Source: an uncultured Chloroflexia bacterium (lineage in GTDB: Bacteria > Chloroflexota > Limnocylindria > Limnocylindrales > CSP1-4). From it: 64,000 nucleotides of DNA. Under the pieces are notes generated by a model, which did not search any database, was not told the DNA's origin, and worked only from the letters and a program-made list of their open reading frames with translations. The first letter of the stretch is position 1. The number at the start of each line of letters is the position of its first letter. This document shows positions 24,052 to 35,582 of the stretch, in pieces. The stretch covers positions 352,001 through 416,000 of the forward strand of contig CAWHXD010000008.1 in NCBI GenBank assembly GCA_963833225.1, written 5' to 3'. The position numbers were made by a program, and so were the translations under genes.

Positions 24052-25401
24052 CGTGCGGCTCCCGCGGCGGCGACGGCGGCCCCGGCCGGCAGGTCGCGGG
24101 CGATGTCACGACGGCGCTGCATGCCGTCCCAGCGCACGGCGTCGGCGGCGCGCTCGGCCGCTGCCCGTGCCGCCGGCAGATCGACGCCCAGGGCCGTCAG
24201 CGCGAGCACGCGGCCGCCGTTGGTCCCAAAGCCGCCCTCGGGACGTTGCCGCGCAGCCGTGCCCGCGTGGAACACGAGCGCCCCGGCGGCCACGGCGTCC
24301 TCGATGCCCTCGATCGGATCGCCACGGCGCGGGTCGCCCGGATAGCCGTGCGCGGCGAGGACGACCGTCACGGCGGCCTCCGGGCGGACCGGGAGCCGCG
24401 ATCGGCGCGTCGGCGGGCAGGGCGCCCGCCGCCGCGGCTGCCAGGAGCGGCGCGAGATCGGCGTCGAGGCGCGGCAGGATCGCCTGGGCCTCGGGATCGC
24501 CGAGCCGGACGTTGGTCTCGAGGAGCACGGGGCCGGTCGGGGTCAGCATCAGGCCCGCGTACAGGAAGCCCCGGAACGGCGTGCCCCGACGCGCCAGCTC
24601 GGCGAGGATCGGCAGGTGGACGGTCCGGAGCAACCCGTCCACCGCGCCGTCGTCGAGATCGGGCAGCGGCGAGTAGGCGCCCATCCCGCCCGTGTTGGGA
24701 CCGGCGTCCCCGTCGCACAGGCGCTTGTGGTCGCGCGCCGCCGGGAGCGCGATCGCGCGGGTGCCGTCGCAGATCGCGATCACGCTGGCCTCGCGCCCCT
24801 CGAGCCGCTCCTCGATCACGAGCGCCGGCGCGCCTGGCTCCCGGCCCACGAGGAACGACGGCATCGAGCTCCAGCGCCTGTGCGGTCGAGTCGGTGACGA
24901 TGACGCCCTTGCCCGCCGCGAGGCCGTCCGCCTTGAGCACGGCCAGCGCTCCGTCCGCGGCGAGCTCCGCGATGAACGCGGCCGCCTCAGCCTGCTGCCC
25001 GCCACCGAGCGCCCGCGACCGGGCCATCCGCACGCCCGCGGCCTCCGCCACGTCGTGGCAGAACGCCTTGCGACGTCTCCATCCGGGCGGCGGCTCGCAC
25101 CGGGCCGAAGACCGGCGATCCCGGCCGCGACGAGCGCGTCCGCCACGCCGACGCCCAGCGGCGCCTCGGGCCCCACGACCACGAGGTCCACGGCCTCGGT
25201 CCGTGCGAGGGCCACGACCGCGGGCGGGTCGAGCGGGTCGACGGGCACGCACCGGACGCCCGGCTGCCGGCCGATCCCCGCGCTGCCGGGTGCCGCCACG
25301 ACCTCCCGGACGCCCGCCTCGCGCGCGAGCTTCCACGCGAGGGCGTGCTCGCGGCCGCCGCCACCGAGGACGAGGATGCGGGCCGGGACGGGGAGGGTCA
25401 C
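24048..25401 (-). CDS. purD: Phosphoribosylamine--glycine ligase (frameshifted)
   Basis: [66 protein letters not shown] over several frames. Confidence 0.93.
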
Positions 25402-25418
25402 GCTGCGTCCTTCGATCG

Positions 25419-26728
25419 TCAGGCCGGCAGGGTTGGCCGGTGCCGCATCGGGCGCCAGGCACGTTCGATGGTCTGGGTTCGTTCGGGTCCGACCGAGACG
25501 AACACGATCGGCACCCCCGCGTGGTCCTCGAGCGCCGTCACGTAGCGGCGAGCCGCCTCGGGCAGGCCGGCCAGCGACCGGATGTCGTGGATCGGCTCCT
25601 CCCAGCCCTCGAAGTCCTCGTAGATCGGCACCGCGCGCGAGAGCGCCGAGCCCGACGAAGGCCACGTCTCCACCCGCTGGCCGTCGATCGTCATAGGCCA
25701 CGCACAGCTTGATCGTCTCGATCCCCGACAGGATGTCGAGCTTGTTGAGCACGATCGCGGAGTTCGAGTTGACCGCGACCGCGTAGCGCAGCGGGACGGT
25801 GTCGAACCAGCCCACCCGGCGGGGCCGTCCGGTGACGGTGCCGAACTCGCGGCCCCGGTCCGCGATCCCGCGGCCAACCTCGTCGACCAGCTCCGTGGGG
25901 AACGGGCCGGACCCGACGCGGGTCGCGTAGGCCTTCATCACCCCAATGATCTCGTCGACCTGGAGCGGCCCGATGCCGCCGCCGGTGCAGGCACCGCCGG
26001 CCACGGGGTTGGAGCTGGTGACGAACGGGTAGCTGCCGTGATCGAGGTCCAGCAGCGTGCCCTGGGCACCCTCGAGCAGCACGTGGTCGCCACGCCGCGA
26101 GCGCGTCCTGGACAAGCCACGTGGAGTCGTCGAGATGGGGGCGCAGGCGCTCGCCCCAGGCCAGGCCCTGCTGGACCAGCGGCTCGACCTCGAACGTGTC
26201 CACGCCCATGTTCGCGAGCAGCAGGTTCTTGTCGACGAGGGCGCGGGTGATCCGCTCGCGGAGCACGGGCTCGTCGCACAGGTCCTCCATCCGGAGGCCG
26301 AGTCGCCAGGCGCGGTCGCCGTAGGTTGGCCCGATGCCGCGTCCGGTGGTGCCCACCTTGGCGCCGGCGAGGCGGCTCTCGTTGCCTTTGTCGAGCGCGA
26401 CGTGGTACGGCATGATCACGTGCGCGCTGCGGCTGACGCGAACCTTGGACACGTCGACGCCCTTGGCGGCCAGCATGTCCAGCTCACGGATCAGGGTCGC
26501 CGGGTTGACCACGACCCCGTTGCCGATGACCGACGTGATGTGCGGGTAGAGCACGCCCGACGGGCACAGCTGGAGCTTGACCGTCTCGTCTCCGACCACG
26601 ACCGTGTGGCCCGCGTTGTCGCCTCCCTGGTAGCGGACCACCATCGCGGTCTGCTCGGCAAGGAAGTCGGTCGTCTTCCCCTTGCCCTCATCGCCCCACT
26701 GGAGGCCGACGATCACGGTCGCGGGCAT
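25419..26728 (-). CDS. purA: Adenylosuccinate synthetase (two frameshifts)
   Basis: [76 protein letters not shown]. Confidence 0.95.
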
Positions 26729-26739
26729 CGCACATCTCC

Positions 26740-26772
26740 GGAAACAAACCGACCCCGGCATCTGCCGGGGTC
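26740..26772 (-). terminator. Terminator-like hairpin in the purA 5' leader (possible attenuator)
   Basis: GACCCCGGCA-GA-TGCCGGGGTC followed by GGTTTGTTT, ending just before the purA RBS. Confidence 0.65.
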
Positions 26773-26843
26773 ACAGGTAGACATCTCCCGCGAGTGCCCG
26801 CCGCGGGACCGGCGGGCCGGGGTCTCGAAGGTGGGAGGCCGCC

Positions 26844-29078: not shown

Positions 29079-30212
29079 TCAGAGCGGCGGGATCGGCAGC
29101 CGGAGCTCGAAGAAGGAGACGGCGATGATCACGTAGACGAGCACGAGGAGCGCACCCTCGAGCCAGTTGGATTCCCCGTCGAGGGCCACGAGCGCGCTGA
29201 TCCCCACCGCGGCCGCCACGCCAGCGATCTCGAGCGGCTGGAAGACGAGGTCCATCGGCTGCCCGACCACCACGCCCAGCAGCACCAGCACCGGCGCCAC
29301 GAACAGCGCGACCTGGAGGGACGAGCCGAAGCTGACCGCGAGCGCGAACTCCATCTTGTTCTTGACCGCGAGCTGCACCGCGACCAGGTGCTCGGCGAGG
29401 TTCCCGATGGTCGGAATGAGGATCACCCCCACGAACAGCTCAGACAGCCCGAACTGCTCGATGAACGGCTCGATCGACCCGACCAGGATCTCGGACAGCA
29501 GGGCGAGGATGGCCGCGGTGACCAGGAGCACGACGGTGGCGGTGCGCATCGTCCATGCCGGCCCTCCATGACCCTCGCTGGCCTCGTGCCCGCCGAGCGT
29601 GCGATCGGGGTTGGTGAACTGCCACACGAGCGACAGGCCGTAGCCCACGATCAGCACGAGGGCCACCAGCACGGACTCCTCGACCCGCACGCCCTCCGAC
29701 TCGAGGCCGCTGGCCGCGAACACGCCGGGGATGAACAGCCCGACGGCCGCGAGGACCAGCAGCGCCGCGTTCGACCCCGCGATCTTGGGGCTGAACGACT
29801 GGAGTCCGTTCCGGAGCCCGCCGGCGAGCATCGCGGCACCCAGCACGAGCAGCAGGTTGCCGATGATCGAGCCCGTGATCGAGGCCTTGACGACATCGAT
29901 CAGCCCGGCCTGCAGCGCGAAGAAGGCGATGATCAGCTCCGCGATGTTGCCGAACGTCGCGTTGAGGATTCCGCCCACCTGCGGTCCGGTCAGGGCGCCC
30001 AGCCGCTCCGTGCACAGCCCGATGACCCACGCGAGGCCCAGGATGGCGACGGCCGAGACGACGAAGACCACGGCGCCCTGGACGTGGAGCACGAGGTCGA
30101 GCCCGGCGGCCACCACGGCCAGGAAGAAGGTCGCCACGAGCGCCATCCTCGCCGCCGGTGACAGGGCACCGAGGACCGGGATCGACGAGCGGGAAGCGGC
30201 GGCGTCCGACAT
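29079..30212 (-). CDS. Ca2+/H+ antiporter (CaCA family, CAX type)
   Basis: LNATFGNIAEL, GSIIGNLLLVLG, IGNLAEH, GSSLQVALF, DGESNWLEG. Confidence 0.94.
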   Translation of the reverse strand: MSDAAASRSSIPVLGALSPAARMALVATFFLAVVAAGLDLVLHVQGAVVFVVSAVAILGLAWVIGLCTERLGALTGPQVGGILNATFGNIAELIIAFFALQAGLIDVVKASITGSIIGNLLLVLGAAMLAGGLRNGLQSFSPKIAGSNAALLVLAAVGLFIPGVFAASGLESEGVRVEESVLVALVLIVGYGLSLVWQFTNPDRTLGGHEASEGHGGPAWTMRTATVVLLVTAAILALLSEILVGSIEPFIEQFGLSELFVGVILIPTIGNLAEHLVAVQLAVKNKMEFALAVSFGSSLQVALFVAPVLVLLGVVVGQPMDLVFQPLEIAGVAAAVGISALVALDGESNWLEGALLVLVYVIIAVSFFELRLPIPPL

Positions 30213-30252: not shown

Positions 30253-31053
30253 TCAGCGCCCCGGCGTGGGTCCCCCGGGCGGCACCGCTGAGACCCGCTC
30301 CGCGAACGGCATCGGCTTCCCGTCGGCTCCCCGGTCCCAGGAGGCGACCTGGAGGAGCGTCGCCACGGCCACCTGCTGCAGGCGTGCCTGTGCGGCCGGC
30401 GTGTCATCCGCGGCCAGGAACCCGACGCGGAGCCCGTGGACCGTCCCCCCGACCAGCATCACGGCGGGCGAGGCGTGGACGAGGCTCGCGCCCGACTCGT
30501 GGATCGCCGTCTCGATCCCCGCTGCCCGCGTCGAGCGACGTGGCGGCGCCCCGACGCGGGCATCGAGCGTGGCGTCCACGTCCGCGACCACACCGTGGAG
30601 CAGGCGGGCGGCCGACCCGCGAACGGCGGCGACCGCCGCGAGCGTGACCTCGATGTCCGGGACGGCCGGGAACCCCTCGCGGGCATAGCCGTGGCTCGCG
30701 GCATCCGCGCGGAAGGCGCCCTCGGCCACGAGGATCCCGTCACCGGGCTCGAGCGGCTCCCGCGTCGCCCCCAGCCCAATCAGCGTCCGCGCGCCAAGGA
30801 CCGCGAGCTCCTCCACCGCGATCGCCGTGCTCGCGGAGCCCGTTCCGGTCGAGCAGACGGTGAGCCGGGTGTCGTCGACCCGGCCCGTCCACAGCTGGAA
30901 CGCGTAGTGGTCGGCGACGAGCCGCGCGTCAGCCCATGTCGCGGCGATCGCGCCGGCCTCCTCGCGTGACGGCGTGAGCACCACGTACGGCGCGATGTCG
31001 TCCGGGCCGGCGTCGCCGCCAAACCCCCGGTGGACGAACTCCCGTTCCGTCAT
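30253..31053 (-). CDS. Degenerate uridine phosphorylase-like (NP-I fold) protein
   Basis: CSTGTGSASTAIAVEEL..LGA, GDGILVAEGAFRAD..S, FPAVPD. Lacks PGDxxR, RxGT and EME. Confidence 0.75.
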   Translation of the reverse strand: MTEREFVHRGFGGDAGPDDIAPYVVLTPSREEAGAIAATWADARLVADHYAFQLWTGRVDDTRLTVCSTGTGSASTAIAVEELAVLGARTLIGLGATREPLEPGDGILVAEGAFRADAASHGYAREGFPAVPDIEVTLAAVAAVRGSAARLLHGVVADVDATLDARVGAPPRRSTRAAGIETAIHESGASLVHASPAVMLVGGTVHGLRVGFLAADDTPAAQARLQQVAVATLLQVASWDRGADGKPMPFAERVSAVPPGGPTPGR

Positions 31054-32846
31054 CGGCCACTCCCTCGCCCGGGCTGCCAGGTCGTGCGGCCGCCAACGTC
31101 CCACGCGGCGAGGATGCGCACCGCGCGCAGCGCGACCTCGATCGCCCGCGGCTCGCCGATGGGGTTGTAGCGCCCGGTCGAGCGGTCGTCCACGACGACG
31201 TTCATCCGCCCCGCCCGCCAGCCGCGGAGCCGGGCCACGGTGAACAGGGTCGCCGTCTCGGTGTCCCAGTCGAGGACGCCCACCGCGCGCAGCTCGTCCT
31301 CGATGCCCGCCATCGACGCCGAGACGAACCCCCCGAACCCCGGGATCCCCTCGCCGGCGTAGAACGACGAGGACGTCCCCCCGACGCCCACGTGCACCGG
31401 GGCCCTCTCTGCCTGCGCGGCCGCGACGAGCGCCGCGGTCACCCAGGTGTCCGCCACCGCCGGATAGGCGGGGTCGATGAACACGTCGCTGGTCCCGTCC
31501 ATCCGCACGGCCCCGCTCGCGACCACCAGGTCCCCGGTCCCGATCCGCTCCTGCAGCGCGCCCGTGACCCCGACCCGGATGAACGTCGTGGCGCCGCGGC
31601 TGCCCAGGGCATCGACCACCAGGCTCACGCCATGCCCCCCGATGCCCGTCGAGCAGGCCGCGACCGGGATCCCGTCGAGGGTCCCGGCGACGAGCAGGAA
31701 GTCCCGCTCGCGCGCGAGCGTGCGCGTGCCTGCGAGGCACTCCCCGAACCGCCCGACGCGGTGCTCGCTGCCGGGCACCAGCACGTACGCGGGCAACGGG
31801 CCATCGAGGCCCGCGAACAGGCCGCCCCGCACGCGGCGGGCGTGGGACGTCGGCCCGGCGGGGGTGGACCCGTCGGCCAGCAGGGCGTCGACATCGGCGG
31901 CGGCGAACGTGCCGCCCTGCGACCCCGGCGTCCGGCACGCGAGCGCACCGGCCGCGGCGCCCCGTCTGGCAGCCGTGAGCACCGGCTCTCCGCGGGCGAG
32001 GCCGAGGAGCATCGCCGCGACGTACGCGTCGCCCGCCGCAAGCGTGTCCACGACATCGACCGGGATGGCTGCCACGCGGGCCTGTCCGTCGGGGGTCGCC
32101 ACGAGCGAGCCATCAGCCCCGCACTTGAGGACGACGACCCCCGGCCCGAGCGCGAGCAGCGCGTCGACGGCTGCTGCGTCCTGGGTCTCGCCGGTCAGCG
32201 CCGTCGCCTCGGCACGGTTGGCGAACGCGATGTCGGCACGTGCGAACAGCGAGCGCAGGTAGCCGGGATCCGCGAGGCTCGATGGGACTGCGGCGTCCAC
32301 GGAGACGAGACAGCCCGCCGCCCGCGCCAGCCGCACGGCCTCGTCCACCACACGCTGGCTGCCCGCGGAGTGATGCGCGTAGCCGTCCACGTGGAACCAG
32401 GTCGCCTCCGCGAACGGGACCCCCGGTCCCAGGTCGGTATCGGAGAAGCGGAGCGCCGGGTCCAGCTGCTCCAGCGCGACCCAGTCACCGGCGGGGTCGC
32501 TGAGGAGCACGAGGAGATCGGCGTCGCGACCCGGACGGACGGCCACGGCACCGGTGTCCACGCCCGCGTCGGCGAGATGAGCCAGGGCGGCCCGCGAGCG
32601 CGGCCCGTCCCCCGTGATGGCGAGGATGGCGGACCGGCCGCCCAGGCGCGCCGCGTAGGCCGCGACGTTCGCCGCGCCACCGCCGGTGCTCGACGCGAGG
32701 GAGCGGATGGGGATGGAGCCCTGCCCGCCGGCCGCCGGATGCCGCTCGACGTGGATGACCTGCTCGGCAAGAAAGCTGCCCATCGCGAGGATGTCGAGGC
32801 GCCGCGGCTCCCTGCCATCCGGGAGGCTCCAGGCCACGCCGGTCAT
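31050..32846 (-). CDS. Fusion of PfkB/ribokinase-family kinase and uridine phosphorylase-like domain
   Basis: N half: GGGAANVA, ANRAEA, KCGADG, VDTLAAGDAY. C half: VPGSEHRV, STGIGG, FIRVGVTGALQ, GAVRMDGTS, YPAVAD, SFYAGE, DTETATL. Confidence 0.88.
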   Translation of the reverse strand: MTGVAWSLPDGREPRRLDILAMGSFLAEQVIHVERHPAAGGQGSIPIRSLASSTGGGAANVAAYAARLGGRSAILAITGDGPRSRAALAHLADAGVDTGAVAVRPGRDADLLVLLSDPAGDWVALEQLDPALRFSDTDLGPGVPFAEATWFHVDGYAHHSAGSQRVVDEAVRLARAAGCLVSVDAAVPSSLADPGYLRSLFARADIAFANRAEATALTGETQDAAAVDALLALGPGVVVLKCGADGSLVATPDGQARVAAIPVDVVDTLAAGDAYVAAMLLGLARGEPVLTAARRGAAAGALACRTPGSQGGTFAAADVDALLADGSTPAGPTSHARRVRGGLFAGLDGPLPAYVLVPGSEHRVGRFGECLAGTRTLARERDFLLVAGTLDGIPVAACSTGIGGHGVSLVVDALGSRGATTFIRVGVTGALQERIGTGDLVVASGAVRMDGTSDVFIDPAYPAVADTWVTAALVAAAQAERAPVHVGVGGTSSSFYAGEGIPGFGGFVSASMAGIEDELRAVGVLDWDTETATLFTVARLRGWRAGRMNVVVDDRSTGRYNPIGEPRAIEVALRAVRILAAWDVGGRTTWQPGRGSGR

Positions 32847-33757
32847 TCGGGCGGCGGGGGCGGCGTGGCTCCCGCAACGTACAGGGACCGCCGCGCGAGA
32901 CCTGTCTCCCGCGCGACCCGGCGGGCCGCCTCACCCCGGGCCACGCCCTCGCCGACAAGGACGTCGACCCGCGCCCGGGCGGCCGCGAGCGCGTCCTCGC
33001 GAGCGTCCATCTCCCCCTCGAGGCTCCCGCGGCCGCGCCCCCAGCCGACGACGAGGACCACCTCGCCCCTGGCGGGGATCGTGCCATCCTGCGCCGCGCG
33101 CACCAGCTCGCCGAGCGAGCCACGCAGGATCTGCTCGTGGAGCTTGGTGAGCTCTCGGCAGACGGCGCCCGGACGGTCATCGCCGCAGGCCGCGGCCAAA
33201 TCGACGAGCGTGGCCGCGACCCTGTTGGGCCCCTCGAACAGCACGCAGCCCCGCGTGTCCCCGGCGATGGCCGCCAGGCGCTCGTGGCGCTCCCGGCCAC
33301 TGCGCGGCAGGAACCCCTCGAACGACCAGCGTGGCCCCGCGATCCCCGCCGCCGCGACCGCCGCGAGCACGGACGATGCCCCCGGCACGGCCATCACCCG
33401 CCCGCCGGCCGCCGCCCACGCCGCGACCAGCCCCTCGCCGGGATCCGAGATGGCCGGGGTGCCAGCATCGGTGACGAGCGCGAGGTCCGCGCCGGACGCG
33501 AGATGGGCGAGCAGCTCGTCCTCCCGCCCGGGAGCGCTCTGTGCGTGGTAGCTCGTGGTGGGGGTCGTGATCTGGTAGCGGTCGAGGAGCCGGCGGGTGA
33601 CCCGTGTGTCCTCGGCGGCGATGAGGGGTACGGCGCGCAGCACGTCGAGCGCCCGGTGGGTGACGTCCCCGAGGTTCCCGATCGGCGTGGCGACGATGAA
33701 CAGCGTCCCGCCGGCCCCGCCCGGCTGGTCGGCTCGGCCGGTGCTGACCGCGCTCAC
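32843..33757 (-). CDS. rsmI: 16S rRNA (cytidine1402-2'-O)-methyltransferase
   Basis: LFIVATPIGNLGD, AAEDTR, TDAGTPAISDPG, FEGFLP, CRELTKLHE, RGEVVLVV. Confidence 0.96.
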   Translation of the reverse strand: MSAVSTGRADQPGGAGGTLFIVATPIGNLGDVTHRALDVLRAVPLIAAEDTRVTRRLLDRYQITTPTTSYHAQSAPGREDELLAHLASGADLALVTDAGTPAISDPGEGLVAAWAAAGGRVMAVPGASSVLAAVAAAGIAGPRWSFEGFLPRSGRERHERLAAIAGDTRGCVLFEGPNRVAATLVDLAAACGDDRPGAVCRELTKLHEQILRGSLGELVRAAQDGTIPARGEVVLVVGWGRGRGSLEGEMDAREDALAAARARVDVLVGEGVARGEAARRVARETGLARRSLYVAGATPPPPPE

Positions 33758-34659
33758 TCGCGGAACGCCGAGCCGGGCCGACGGCGCGGGTACAGGTAGT
33801 CGACGCCGGCCGTGCGCGGACCGAGCTTCGCGATGGGCGGCACCTGGCGCTTGAACTCGGACGTGGCGACCATCCGGTCGACGCGCTCCACCATTGCCCG
33901 GTCGAACCCGAGCGCGACCACCTCGTCGATCGAGCGTCGCTTGTCGATCCGCCAGAACAGCAGGCGATCGAGCTCCGGGTATGAGAAGCCGGCCTCGCTC
34001 TCGTCCGTCTGGCCCGGCCACAGGTCCGCGGATGGCGCCTTGCGGATGATGGCCTCCGGCACCCCGATGGCCGCCGAGAGCTGCCTGACCTGGCTCTTGT
34101 ACAGGTCGCCGATGGGGTTGAACGCGCACGCGGAATCGCCGAACAGGGTCGTATAGCCGATCAGCGACTCGGTCTTGTTGCCCGTCCCGACAACCAGCCC
34201 ACGCCACGTCACGGACCGGTCGTACAGCACGGCCATCCGCATCCGTGCCATGAAATTGCCCCGGCGCAGCGGCGCCGCGTCCAGCGCCCCGGTTCCGCCC
34301 TCGCCCGCGGACGCGTCGCGCCCGAAGTAGCCGTCCACCATCCCGGTGATCTCGACCACCTCCCCCGCGCAGCCGAGGTCCGCCACGACCGCCTCCGCGT
34401 CCCCGCGCGAGGCAGGCGACGAGGTCCGGTAGGGCATCATCACGCACAGCACCCGGTCCGCTCCGATCGCCTCGGCGGTCAGGTACGCGACCAGCGCCGA
34501 ATCGATCCCGCCCGACAGCCCCAGGACGGCGTTGTTGAACCCGGCCTGCCGCAGCTGGCCGCGGATGAACGCGGCGATGGCCTGGCGGGCGATGTCGGTG
34601 TCGATCGCGAGCTCGTCGGGCAGCTCGAACAGGGCCTCGCCGGCACCCGGCCGGCTCAC
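33754..34659 (-). CDS. nadE: NAD+ synthetase, synthetase subunit
   Basis: GLSGGIDS, GNFMARMRM, GTGNKTE..IGY.TLFGD, PIGDLYK, KAPSADLWPGQTDE. Confidence 0.96.
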   Translation of the reverse strand: MSRPGAGEALFELPDELAIDTDIARQAIAAFIRGQLRQAGFNNAVLGLSGGIDSALVAYLTAEAIGADRVLCVMMPYRTSSPASRGDAEAVVADLGCAGEVVEITGMVDGYFGRDASAGEGGTGALDAAPLRRGNFMARMRMAVLYDRSVTWRGLVVGTGNKTESLIGYTTLFGDSACAFNPIGDLYKSQVRQLSAAIGVPEAIIRKAPSADLWPGQTDESEAGFSYPELDRLLFWRIDKRRSIDEVVALGFDRAMVERVDRMVATSEFKRQVPPIAKLGPRTAGVDYLYPRRRPGSAFRE

Positions 34660-35582
34660 CGGTCCGCCGCCACGTCGAAGCCCGGCTCGGACCCGTCCTC
34701 CGCCGTCGCATCGGCGCTCAGGCCGGCACGCTCCGAGATCAGGCGCCGCCACTCGCGTGCGACCAGCTCCGGCCGCTCGTCGCGCAGCAGCGGCAGCGCG
34801 ATCCGCTCCCGGCGAACCTCCGCGAGGTCCACGTCGACGCAGAACAGCCCCTCCTCGAACATCGGCGCACCGAAGATCGGCGCGCCGGTCGGGCCGATCA
34901 CCTCGGAGCCGCCCCAGAACGACAGGCTCTCGTCCACGCCGACCCGGTTGCAGAACACCACGAACGAGGTCGTCAGCTGCGCGTACGTGCGCATCAGCCC
35001 GCGCCATGAGCCGGCCGTCCCGAGGCCCACCTCGTGGACCCGGGCGAGGTCCCGCCCCGGCGAGGAGGAGACGTTGACCAGGATCTGGGCGCCGTCGAGC
35101 GCCAGGAGCTGCGGGGTGGCCAGGTGCCAGAAGTCCTCGCAGACCGCCAGCCCGATCCCGACACCCAGGCGCGACGGCGCCGCCCGGACCGTGTTGCCCG
35201 GGGCGAAGAACCGGCGCTCGTCGAACAGGCCGTACGTGGGCAGGTGGATCTTGCGGTGGACGTGGCGCACCTCCCCGCCCTCGAGCAGGGCCACCGAGAT
35301 GAACAGGCGGTGGTCCGCCGATTCCTCCACGAACGACACGACCGCCGACAGGTCCCGGGTGGCCTCGGCGAGGGACATGAGGCGAGGATCGTCGAGCCGC
35401 ATCGCCACCTCGGCCGCGAGGTCCTGGAGCAGGTACCCGGTGAGGCCGAGCTCCGGGAACACGACCAGCCCCGCGCCTTCGGCGCGCGCCTCGCCGATGA
35501 GCTCGTGATGGCGCTCGAGATTGGCATCGAGGTCCCCGAGCCGCGGGGCGATCTGGGCGAGAGCGATGCGGAGGGGCTGCAC
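34656..35582 (-). CDS. Carbon-nitrogen hydrolase, likely glutaminase subunit of a split NAD+ synthetase
   Basis: Glu-Lys-Cys triad in FPELGLTGY, HRKIHLPTYGLFDERRFF and VCEDFW. Stop overlaps the nadE GTG. Confidence 0.9.
   Translation of the reverse strand: MQPLRIALAQIAPRLGDLDANLERHHELIGEARAEGAGLVVFPELGLTGYLLQDLAAEVAMRLDDPRLMSLAEATRDLSAVVSFVEESADHRLFISVALLEGGEVRHVHRKIHLPTYGLFDERRFFAPGNTVRAAPSRLGVGIGLAVCEDFWHLATPQLLALDGAQILVNVSSSPGRDLARVHEVGLGTAGSWRGLMRTYAQLTTSFVVFCNRVGVDESLSFWGGSEVIGPTGAPIFGAPMFEEGLFCVDVDLAEVRRERIALPLLRDERPELVAREWRRLISERAGLSADATAEDGSEPGFDVAADR

Follow-up and report, generated by a model that had tools for sequence, protein, structure and literature searches.

The kinase-phosphorylase fusion and its coupled paralogue

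This study concerns two overlapping genes in a 64,000-nucleotide stretch of DNA from an uncultured Chloroflexota bacterium (assembly GCA_963833225.1, contig CAWHXD010000008.1, positions 352,001 to 416,000), here called the window, in whose numbering all coordinates are given. Both genes lie on the minus strand. The first (31050..32846) encodes a protein of 598 amino acids plus stop, in which a PfkB-family kinase (K, residues 19-311, 31914..32792), a linker (residues 312-353, 31788..31913) and a uridine-phosphorylase-like domain of the NP-I family (A, residues 354-598, 31053..31787) follow one another in a single polypeptide. The second (30253..31053) encodes a paralogue of the phosphorylase domain (B, 266 amino acids plus stop) that appears to be non-catalytic. 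The overall reading favoured here, in which A and B would form an obligate hetero-oligomer tethered to a ribose-salvage kinase, has in our judgement about an even chance of being correct.

The domains were assigned by hidden Markov model searches and, for A, by alignment to solved uridine phosphorylases. K matched PF00294 at 147.7 bits (gathering cut-off 25.8) over residues 19-311, placing it in the PfkB superfamily; A matched PF01048 (PNP_UDP_1) at 99.4 bits (cut-off 25.1) over fusion residues 354-553, and B matched the same family at 33.3 bits over its residues 23-157 only. The two genes share four bases: B opens at the ATG of ...gccgATGAcgg..., and the TGA of the same ATGA (31050..31053, minus strand) is the stop codon of the fusion, an arrangement that implies translational coupling. 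The same four-base overlap was found at the three other fused loci (L013, L014 and L093), that is, in 4/4 loci with the window. The initial annotation had described one 598-amino-acid reading frame joining a PfkB kinase to a PNP_UDP_1 domain, with a stop overlapping the start of a second gene, and in this the reading frame, its translation and Pfam all agree with it.

Authenticity of the two genes

The fused arrangement was also encountered outside this assembly. Five further full-length fused homologs of 583-621 amino acids, from several sources, showed 63-86% identity to the window protein, and the copy in a second genome of the genus (G013), which is 84% identical, is uninterrupted by stops. 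A public contig of 506 bases covers positions 31555-32060, across the domain junction, with 17 substitutions and no gap, and two other public contigs cross the stop/start overlap, again without a gap. These contigs came from four of 15 listed sequencing runs, each with a share of at most 0.17, and were used only for junction crossing. The stop or indel at the domain junction that the initial annotation had named as grounds for refutation was found neither in the spanning contig nor in the six fused proteins.

B is likewise maintained. It has 24 intact homologs of 49-91% identity, and the ratio of nonsynonymous to synonymous substitution rates (dN/dS) of its gene was 0.255, 0.352 and 0.388 against L013, L014 and L093, respectively. 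The corresponding values were 0.172, 0.303 and 0.280 for A and 0.110, 0.251 and 0.166 for the kinase, and those of the linker, which is poorly conserved among the six fusions, lay between 0.27 and 0.50. The ratios were calculated by the Nei-Gojobori method with our own script; in the two distant comparisons dS approaches saturation. Purifying selection acts on B, which is not decaying; with its joint presence and absence with A, described below, this speaks against the earlier concern that homologs of the second gene might occur independently or decay like pseudogenes.

An artefactual origin, with the fusion created by an indel error in an error-prone assembly and the second gene a pseudogene, is extremely unlikely. 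The assembly does carry frame breaks elsewhere, since purA (24100-26800, minus strand) is read in three frames where its L013 ortholog forms one open frame. Against this stand the six fused proteins from different sources, all in frame, the uninterrupted copy in G013, the gapless public contig despite its 17 substitutions, and the selection on B with its intact homologs. A purD-like open reading frame beside purA also alternates between sense and nonsense stretches by eye. The frame breaks of the purA region probably reflect assembly indel error rather than real pseudogenes, and other reading frames of the window may share it. In one further genome, frame-shifted K-A-B pieces were seen in P0008 and P0024, with a 409-amino-acid 'kinase' containing garbled stretches; that locus includes a 331-amino-acid protein in which the last part of A runs into B, and represents either an assembly error or a decaying copy.

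Complementary loss of active-site elements

The subunits of hexameric NP-I enzymes complete one another's active sites, each receiving from its neighbour an N-terminal His segment and a hairpin residue (position 48 in Escherichia coli Udp). The sequences of A and B were therefore compared at the residues that a subunit keeps for its own pocket (cis) and at those that it lends to its neighbour (trans). A contains the motifs VPGSEHR (357-363), CSTGIGG (398-404), RVGVTG (424-429) and YPAV (461-464), in which R363 is equivalent to Udp R30 and R424 to R91; R381 is equivalent to R48. Udp numbering was taken from the 1k3f alignment row (fusion 354-557 against chain 21-225). Where A has the first three of these motifs, B reads TPSREE, GLGATR and VHASPA, and it retains AVEELA and an N-terminal REFVHRGFGG. 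The alignment thus bears out the earlier description of a second protein lacking PGD.R, R.GT and EME and retaining AVEEL and FVHRG. Neither protein reached the cut-off of the two dedicated uridine phosphorylase models, with A scoring 191.1 and B 97.6 bits on TIGR01718 (cut-off 280.3), and 163.7 and 85.4 bits, respectively, on NF008383 (cut-off 262). An ESM Atlas search with B returned generic PNP_UDP_1 clusters only (score 0.90).

Eighty-four sequences were realigned, comprising 40 A and 12 B proteins of the wider family and 10 A and 22 B proteins of the fused lineage, and columns were read at known Udp positions, with residue roles in part from excerpts of Roosild et al. (PMC2664818). The cis residues R30 and R91 were present in all 50 A sequences, in 8/12 wide-family B sequences each and in none of the 22 fused-lineage B sequences. 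F162 was likewise universal in A (50/50) and absent from B (0/34), and E198 was found in 50/50 A, 11/12 wide-family B and 0/22 fused-lineage B. Fused-lineage B is thus a paralogue devoid of these four catalytic residues and nevertheless conserved, the usual mark of a pseudo-enzyme.

The trans elements followed the opposite course. The N-terminal His was found in 39/40 wide-family A, in 5/10 fused-lineage A and in 34/34 B, and the F-G that follows it is kept in 34/34 B (H8, F11 and G12 being invariant) and degenerate in fused-lineage A. His at the Udp H47 position was present in 39/40 wide-family A, 0/10 fused-lineage A and 22/22 fused-lineage B (H49 of B), and Tyr at the R48 position in 34/40 wide-family A, 34/34 B (Y50) and 0/10 fused-lineage A, which have Arg (five), Gly (four) or Asp (one). 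The two elements of B are REFVHRGFGG (residues 4-13, 31015..31044, minus strand) and the hairpin DHY (residues 48-50, 30904..30912, minus strand), both conserved in the B alignments. The former is the most conserved stretch of B, with R4, F6, V7, H8, R9, F11, G12 and G13 invariant in 25 close homologs. In the fusion, the His motif found at the N-terminus of A-type proteins survives in degenerate form in the linker as SHARRVRGG (334-342), which aligns with the 'IHERMGG' of stand-alone A proteins.

Judged from these columns, fused-lineage A keeps the residues of its own pocket and has lost those it would lend, and fused-lineage B shows the reverse. If A paired with itself, its trans elements would be expected to stay conserved; they did not. 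Because the pocket of fused-lineage B is fully dead, the elements that A would lend to it were free to drift, and the elements lent by B stayed frozen. The complementary loss therefore fits the expectation for an A and a B that meet at the interface where active sites are shared. We propose that B would lend its N-terminal His segment and hairpin to the pocket of A, giving one live site per A/B pair, and that the two genes would encode one assembly. An A/B hetero-oligomer with B as a non-catalytic member is reasonably probable.

Several observations count against such pairing. The A domain of the window itself has the canonical His335 (within SHARRVRGG) and Arg381 at the trans positions, and an A-A pair could still be competent in this protein. 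The argument from decay draws on the lineage as a whole (5/10 His, 5/10 Arg and 4/10 Gly) and not on the window sequence, and the complementary pattern arose in a single event within one clade and does not amount to 22 independent cases. The canonical residues of the window's A would suit a domain that is homo-oligomeric like an ordinary uridine phosphorylase, with B a separate protein that might, for example, sense a ligand or regulate either A or the kinase. Such a role would also accord with wide-family B, which may still bind a sugar phosphate itself since it mostly keeps R30, R91 and E198. This arrangement nevertheless seems improbable, as the trans positions that are unconstrained in fused-lineage A are the ones that are invariant in B, the His motif is the best conserved part of B, and the two genes strictly co-occur with ATGA coupling.

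Predicted structures of B and of the A-B pair

The predicted structure of B had a mean predicted local distance difference test (pLDDT) score of 90 and a predicted template modelling score of 0.89, and its best matches among solved folds were uridine phosphorylases (template modelling scores of 0.69-0.71 over about 245 columns). Prediction of the complex of the A domain with B, as the initial annotation had proposed, gave a score of 0.67 against 0.00 for the best of three controls. The mark used for this score is reached by 116/157 solved complexes and 2/215 mismatched pairs, and is rough here as our own alignments were used. The A-B runs agreed in at least 95% of contacts, with partner pLDDT of at least 89. 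Since solved homo-oligomeric uridine phosphorylases exist, this result may reflect only the likeness of the pair to them.

The confident contacts form a symmetric set on A 123-133 (YPAV) and B 123-131 (FPAV), together with both C-terminal tails. This region corresponds to the hexamer-ring surface of E. coli Udp, and excerpts of Roosild et al. (PMC2664818) place a K+ site (Glu49) at the dimer interface of that enzyme. The predicted contact between A and B thus lies at the ring surface and not at the interface where active sites would be shared. B residues 1-20 and 48-52 are outside the confident contact list; the modelled interface is accordingly the ring interface, which has no bearing on trans-completion, and its position is a point for a homo-oligomeric A. 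The modelled ring contact is compatible with an alternating A3B3 ring. Such a ring is the likely form of the proposed A/B assembly, because A and B both keep the hexamer-ring 'FPAV' surface.

Distribution and evolution of the module

The fused form is rare. It was found in 2/25 genomes of the genus (G000, which contains the window, and G013) and in 0/16 genomes searched from the same order. One-genome-per-species contigs contained two fused loci (L013, which is the G013 locus, and L014) and the metagenome set one (L093), and among the 150 best matches of a HMMER scan over 1.84 billion representatives only P0006 was full-length and fused. Close relatives also occur as separate genes, namely the kinase-only P0009 with the stand-alone A protein P0067, P0011 with P0040 and P0070 with P0039, and stand-alone proteins 46-57% identical to A are numerous. 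A search with tblastn revealed the order K-A-B on one strand in 18 further loci (L015-L024, L094, L095, L097, L099, L100, L103, L105 and L106, some being duplicates of one another), with identities of 32-48% for K, 46-57% for A and 30-36% for B. Most of these belong to Anaerolineales and other Chloroflexota, with single cases in Marinacidobacterales and Rhodospirillaceae.

In a tree of 57 sequences, A and B together formed one clade (support 98) apart from other uridine-phosphorylase-like proteins. The tree was built by a quick method, with branch support from the Shimodaira-Hasegawa-like approximate likelihood ratio test (SH-aLRT) only and with two mis-called N-termini trimmed. The A domain of the window grouped with the other A proteins (support 94) and its B with the other B proteins (80), and consequently the duplication is older than the fusion; the stems of the fused lineage are long, at 0.78 and 1.54 changes per column. 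On this phylogeny the window pair appears to be a derived form of the K-A-B operon. Split A proteins nest among the fused ones, so that either fusion or fission occurred more than once or some gene calls are fragmentary.

The two genes come and go together. Both A and B genes were present in 4/4 module-bearing loci, and both were absent in 5/5 same-genus loci with abutting flanks. In these five loci (L188, L190, L191, L192 and L193) the TP_methylase gene stands directly before the ssb or Na_Ca_ex antiporter gene; at a sixth (L189) none of the downstream markers was seen. This joint gain or loss between abutting flanks makes the 2.6-kb module a clean presence/absence unit, for which the neighbouring NAD synthase genes only mark the site. 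A functional link to NAD was accordingly rejected, CN_hydrolase, NAD_synthase and TP_methylase keeping the same order in the five loci that lack the module.

Around the module, the TP_methylase gene (RsmI-like; Pfam TP_methylase 95.7 bits) lies upstream, and its stop codon overlaps the fusion start in another ATGA (32843..32846, minus strand), noted as context only. NAD synthase is encoded by two separate, slightly overlapping genes, CN_hydrolase and NAD_synthase (33754-35582, minus strand), a split also seen in L013, L014 and L093. Downstream, a Na_Ca_ex (CAX-type) antiporter gene (29079-30200, minus strand) lies between B and ssb, as it does in G004 and G024; it is absent there in G013, G008, G006 and G042, which makes it another gene, beside the module, that varies in presence at this site.

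Other combinations of these domains were also observed. A second tandem uridine-phosphorylase-like pair with canonical PGDPGR and NREY lies on the same contig outside the window (G000:C8:139251-140772), its members being sisters in the tree and outside the A/B clade, and G013 and G002 have similar tandem pairs, there at a distance of about 5 kb from a PfkB gene. P0274 (622 amino acids) is an independent fusion of PfkB with PNP_UDP_1 of a different, DeoD-like NP-I subtype. P0311 (479 amino acids) joins PNP_UDP_1 to a HAD_2 hydrolase and P0270 (336 amino acids) joins it to PPK2.

Substrates of the phosphorylase and the kinase

Under the proposed scheme, the A/B assembly would convert a nucleoside and phosphate to a base and ribose-1-phosphate, and K would then phosphorylate ribose-1-phosphate with ATP to ribose-1,5-bisphosphate. 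That the kinase acts in the same pathway as the phosphorylase is highly probable. Ribose-1-phosphate is the most economical guess for its substrate, and a tentative one; the channelling of this intermediate to the kinase that the initial annotation suggested is a conjecture.

The pocket of A departs from that of Udp in the residues around the base. Where Udp has FYPGQE and NYEMES, A has FYAGEG (495-500) and DWDTET (526-531). The comparison with solved uridine phosphorylases confirmed that the fused domain keeps PG..R, STGIGG and R.G with altered base motifs; these changes are present in the fusion as had been described, but are not peculiar to it, being a hallmark of the stand-alone A clade as a whole (50/50 A sequences). 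Q166 and R168 are the uracil ligands of Udp. With FYPGQER reading FYAGEGI in the window, the Q166 position is Glu in 46/50 A sequences and the R168 position is Ile in the window's A, and across A the two positions read E and G/I; uracil is probably not the base. R223 is absent from wide-family A and present in 9/10 fused-lineage A sequences. A non-standard or pyridine nucleoside, as suggested initially, is not indicated either, the altered motifs being clade-wide and the operons lying beside BMP/PnrA-type nucleoside ABC transporters.

The kinase domain looks catalytically active and, from its residues, does not look like a ribokinase. The catalytic Asp of DTxGAGD and the NxxE motif are hallmarks of the PfkB family, and K has GGGAANV (55-61), NRAE (210-213) and DTLAAGD (267-273); across 18 K sequences D273 and G272 do not vary, and conservation of N210 and E213 is 90% or higher. 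In ribokinase, ribose is bound by the Asn of GSxNxD and the Lys of GGKGANQA; the equivalent positions in K are L26 and G57, as seen in the alignment to the solved ribokinase 6znx, in which 'lnmD' is replaced by 'flaE' and 'GGKGANQA' by 'GGGAANVA'. The highest NCBIfam score of K was 110.4 bits for an IolC-type model, and no equivalog cut-off was reached.

The ribose-1-phosphate step has its own difficulties. K scored 88.0 bits on the haloarchaeal ribose-1-phosphate kinase model, far below the cut-off of 330 (K proteins of related operons scored 81.7-96.1 bits), and the conserved residues of the 18 K sequences show no clear basic cluster for a phosphorylated substrate. Of the four phosphate ligands of Udp, two are replaced clade-wide in A, R48 by Tyr and T94 by Val (49/50 A sequences), the window's A having Arg at position 48. 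No RuBisCO_large match was found in this genome (86% complete), whose only two IF-2B genes are MtnA (339.9 bits) and MtnA-like (229.9 bits), so that a fate for ribose-1,5-bisphosphate is not evident here. IF-2B genes flank just 3/18 K-A-B loci.

All of this could be accommodated by a more classical salvage, in which A, with or without B, would be a phosphorylase with an altered phosphate site or a hydrolase, the kinase would act on free ribose or on the O5' of a nucleoside, and the fusion would merely fix the stoichiometry of two salvage enzymes. K scores the same on the ribokinase RbsK model (TIGR02152, 87.7 bits, cut-off 299.65) as on the ribose-1-phosphate kinase model, this genome has no ribose-1,5-bisphosphate isomerase-type gene, and one published ribose-1-phosphate kinase also takes cytidine and uridine, according to excerpts of Sato et al. 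(2022, PMC9700705). This alternative is unlikely, however. R30 and R91 are invariant in A, as for a phosphorylase, and the sugar-binding Asn and Lys of ribokinase are replaced in K; furthermore, no phosphopentomutase (deoB) match was found in this genome, at 86% completeness, to pass on ribose-1-phosphate. Among five other K-A-B genomes, deoB was above cut-off in one.

Genome and operon context

The neighbours of K-A-B in other genomes offer some indication of the pathway to which phosphorylase and kinase would belong. Genes for a BMP/PnrA-type substrate-binding protein and an ABC transporter lie upstream in L022 and L024, and an ATPase and permease of the same BMP/PnrA-associated type in L019. 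Downstream of B lie two IF-2B genes in L103 and in L106 and a single one in L019; for those of L103 and L019 the best NCBIfam model was ribose-1,5-bisphosphate isomerase, at 131.9-162.5 bits (cut-off 314.1, which none reached). Both L103 and L023 contain SLOG cluster 4 genes. In the genome of the window, five class II aldolase matches were found, none linked to the module, and the best PhnN match (67.2 bits) was below the cut-off of 156. The IF-2B genes of three other K-A-B genomes were considered as evidence for ribose-1,5-bisphosphate and rejected, as their neighbours suggest methionine-salvage MtnA; these neighbours include NP-II pyrimidine phosphorylase and, by eye, APRT, a PfkB adenosine-kinase-like gene and SAH hydrolase.

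The IF-2B neighbours at three loci, and the SLOG cluster 4 genes as a nucleotide-linked family, would also suit a route through nucleotides. The kinase would then make a nucleoside monophosphate (NMP), from which A/B, as a nucleotide phosphorylase, would release ribose-1,5-bisphosphate, with an Arg beside the trans His binding the 5'-phosphate. Such an Arg follows the His in 22/22 fused-lineage B sequences (VHR) and in the IHER consensus of wide-family A, but it is not invariant in wide-family B, and the BMP-type transporters suggest nucleosides rather than nucleotides. To our knowledge no NP-I enzyme has NMP-phosphorylase activity, which also weighs against this route, and we regard it as very unlikely. 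A nucleoside phosphorylase working with the kinase is the reading retained here.

Some operons are more elaborate. In L103:526-9746, L019:3102-9813 and L100:145-4577 the cassette is doubled: an additional K comes with A2 and a strongly diverged B2, after which the genes for SLOG cluster 4, K, a small cupin protein, A and B are followed by IF-2B genes. Beyond these, L103 has a gene of the pseudouridine-5'-phosphate glycosidase type (Indigoidine_A) and one for a LacI regulator. In the low-GC, Anaerolineales-type marine loci L015, L016, L021, L095 and L105, the order is ROK (on the opposite strand), SIS, a second PfkB, K, A and B. The second PfkB is IolC-like (140 bits), and these loci adjoin suf iron-sulfur assembly-like genes by eye. 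The SIS protein and this extra kinase may supply the same pathway or draw on it.

Relation to known systems

NP-I phosphorylases (PNP, Udp and MTAP) are homo-oligomers and are the workhorses of nucleoside-analogue biocatalysis. E. coli Udp shares its fold and an FPAV-type ring surface with both A and B, and A keeps its R30, R91, F162 and E198, with R223 in the fused lineage. Udp is a homo-hexamer with six active sites, whereas one live site per A/B pair would be expected here, and A differs from it by Glu and Ile for Q166 and R168, Val for T94 and, in the clade, Tyr at position 48.

The closest known system appears to be the haloarchaeal pair of Urdpase1 and the ribose-1-phosphate kinase that depends on ATP, in which a uridine-phosphorylase-like NP-I enzyme is likewise coupled genetically to a PfkB kinase. 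Excerpts of Sato et al. (2022, PMC9700705) describe haloarchaeal operons encoding ribose-1,5-bisphosphate isomerase, a PfkB kinase that phosphorylates ribose-1-phosphate with ATP and a 'uridine phosphorylase' homolog for which guanosine is the preferred substrate, with ten haloarchaeal species having the phosphorylase and kinase without the isomerase. A further likeness is that the haloarchaeal phosphorylase homolog does not prefer uridine (PMC9700705), and behind some relatives of the module lie IF-2B genes that score best on the isomerase model, as in the haloarchaeal operon. The window module differs in joining the two enzymes in one polypeptide, in having a second, apparently dead phosphorylase subunit, in its bacterial host, in the low score of its kinase on the haloarchaeal model and in the lack of an isomerase-type gene in its genome.

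A nucleoside phosphorylase followed by a ribokinase-family ribose-1-phosphate kinase, as proposed here, is also the sequence of steps in Thermococcus kodakarensis (ADP-dependent kinase TK2029; excerpted via PMC9700705). Unlike the window module, its enzymes are separate, unlinked and homo-oligomeric, and the downstream route depends on RuBisCO. The retention of a dead paralog as a needed partner resembles the trypanosomatid prozymes of AdoMetDC and deoxyhypusine synthase (excerpts of PMC5201418 and PMC3663545). Those are eukaryotic, of other folds and allosteric, whereas B, on its sequence, would act as an active-site donor.

The literature search turned up no account of a heteromeric NP-I phosphorylase, of a fusion between PfkB and uridine phosphorylase or of such an operon in Chloroflexota, which is not proof of absence. 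The association of an NP-I phosphorylase with a PfkB kinase in nucleoside catabolism is known; what would be new is the subunit design, which appears unprecedented. The hetero-oligomeric salvage enzyme inferred in the initial annotation thus gained support from the complementary loss in A and B, the selection on B, the ATGA overlap at every fused locus, the co-presence of the genes and the haloarchaeal operon, and lost some from His335 and Arg381 of the window's A, which would permit a homo-oligomer. In its fullest form, as the first hetero-oligomeric NP-I nucleoside phosphorylase, an A3B3 ring with a dead donor subunit, a tethered ribose-1-phosphate kinase and a ribose-1,5-bisphosphate exit that bypasses phosphopentomutase, the proposal is doubtful.

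Excerpts of Sato et al. (2022, PMC9700705) suggest that bacteria may possess ribose-1-phosphate kinases more widely than has been recognised, and the module offers a candidate for the bacterial enzyme they suspected. If the ribose-1,5-bisphosphate reading is true, it would give Chloroflexota, as bacteria, an entry to pentose-bisphosphate metabolism that bypasses phosphopentomutase. The question of the heteromer stands even if the kinase is an ordinary ribose or nucleoside kinase, and, if the A/B assembly is real, it would neatly illustrate the passage from a homomer to an obligate heteromer through complementary loss. The conserved K-A-B operon represents an uncharacterised nucleoside-catabolic module of the Chloroflexota, a phylum that is abundant and mostly uncultured.

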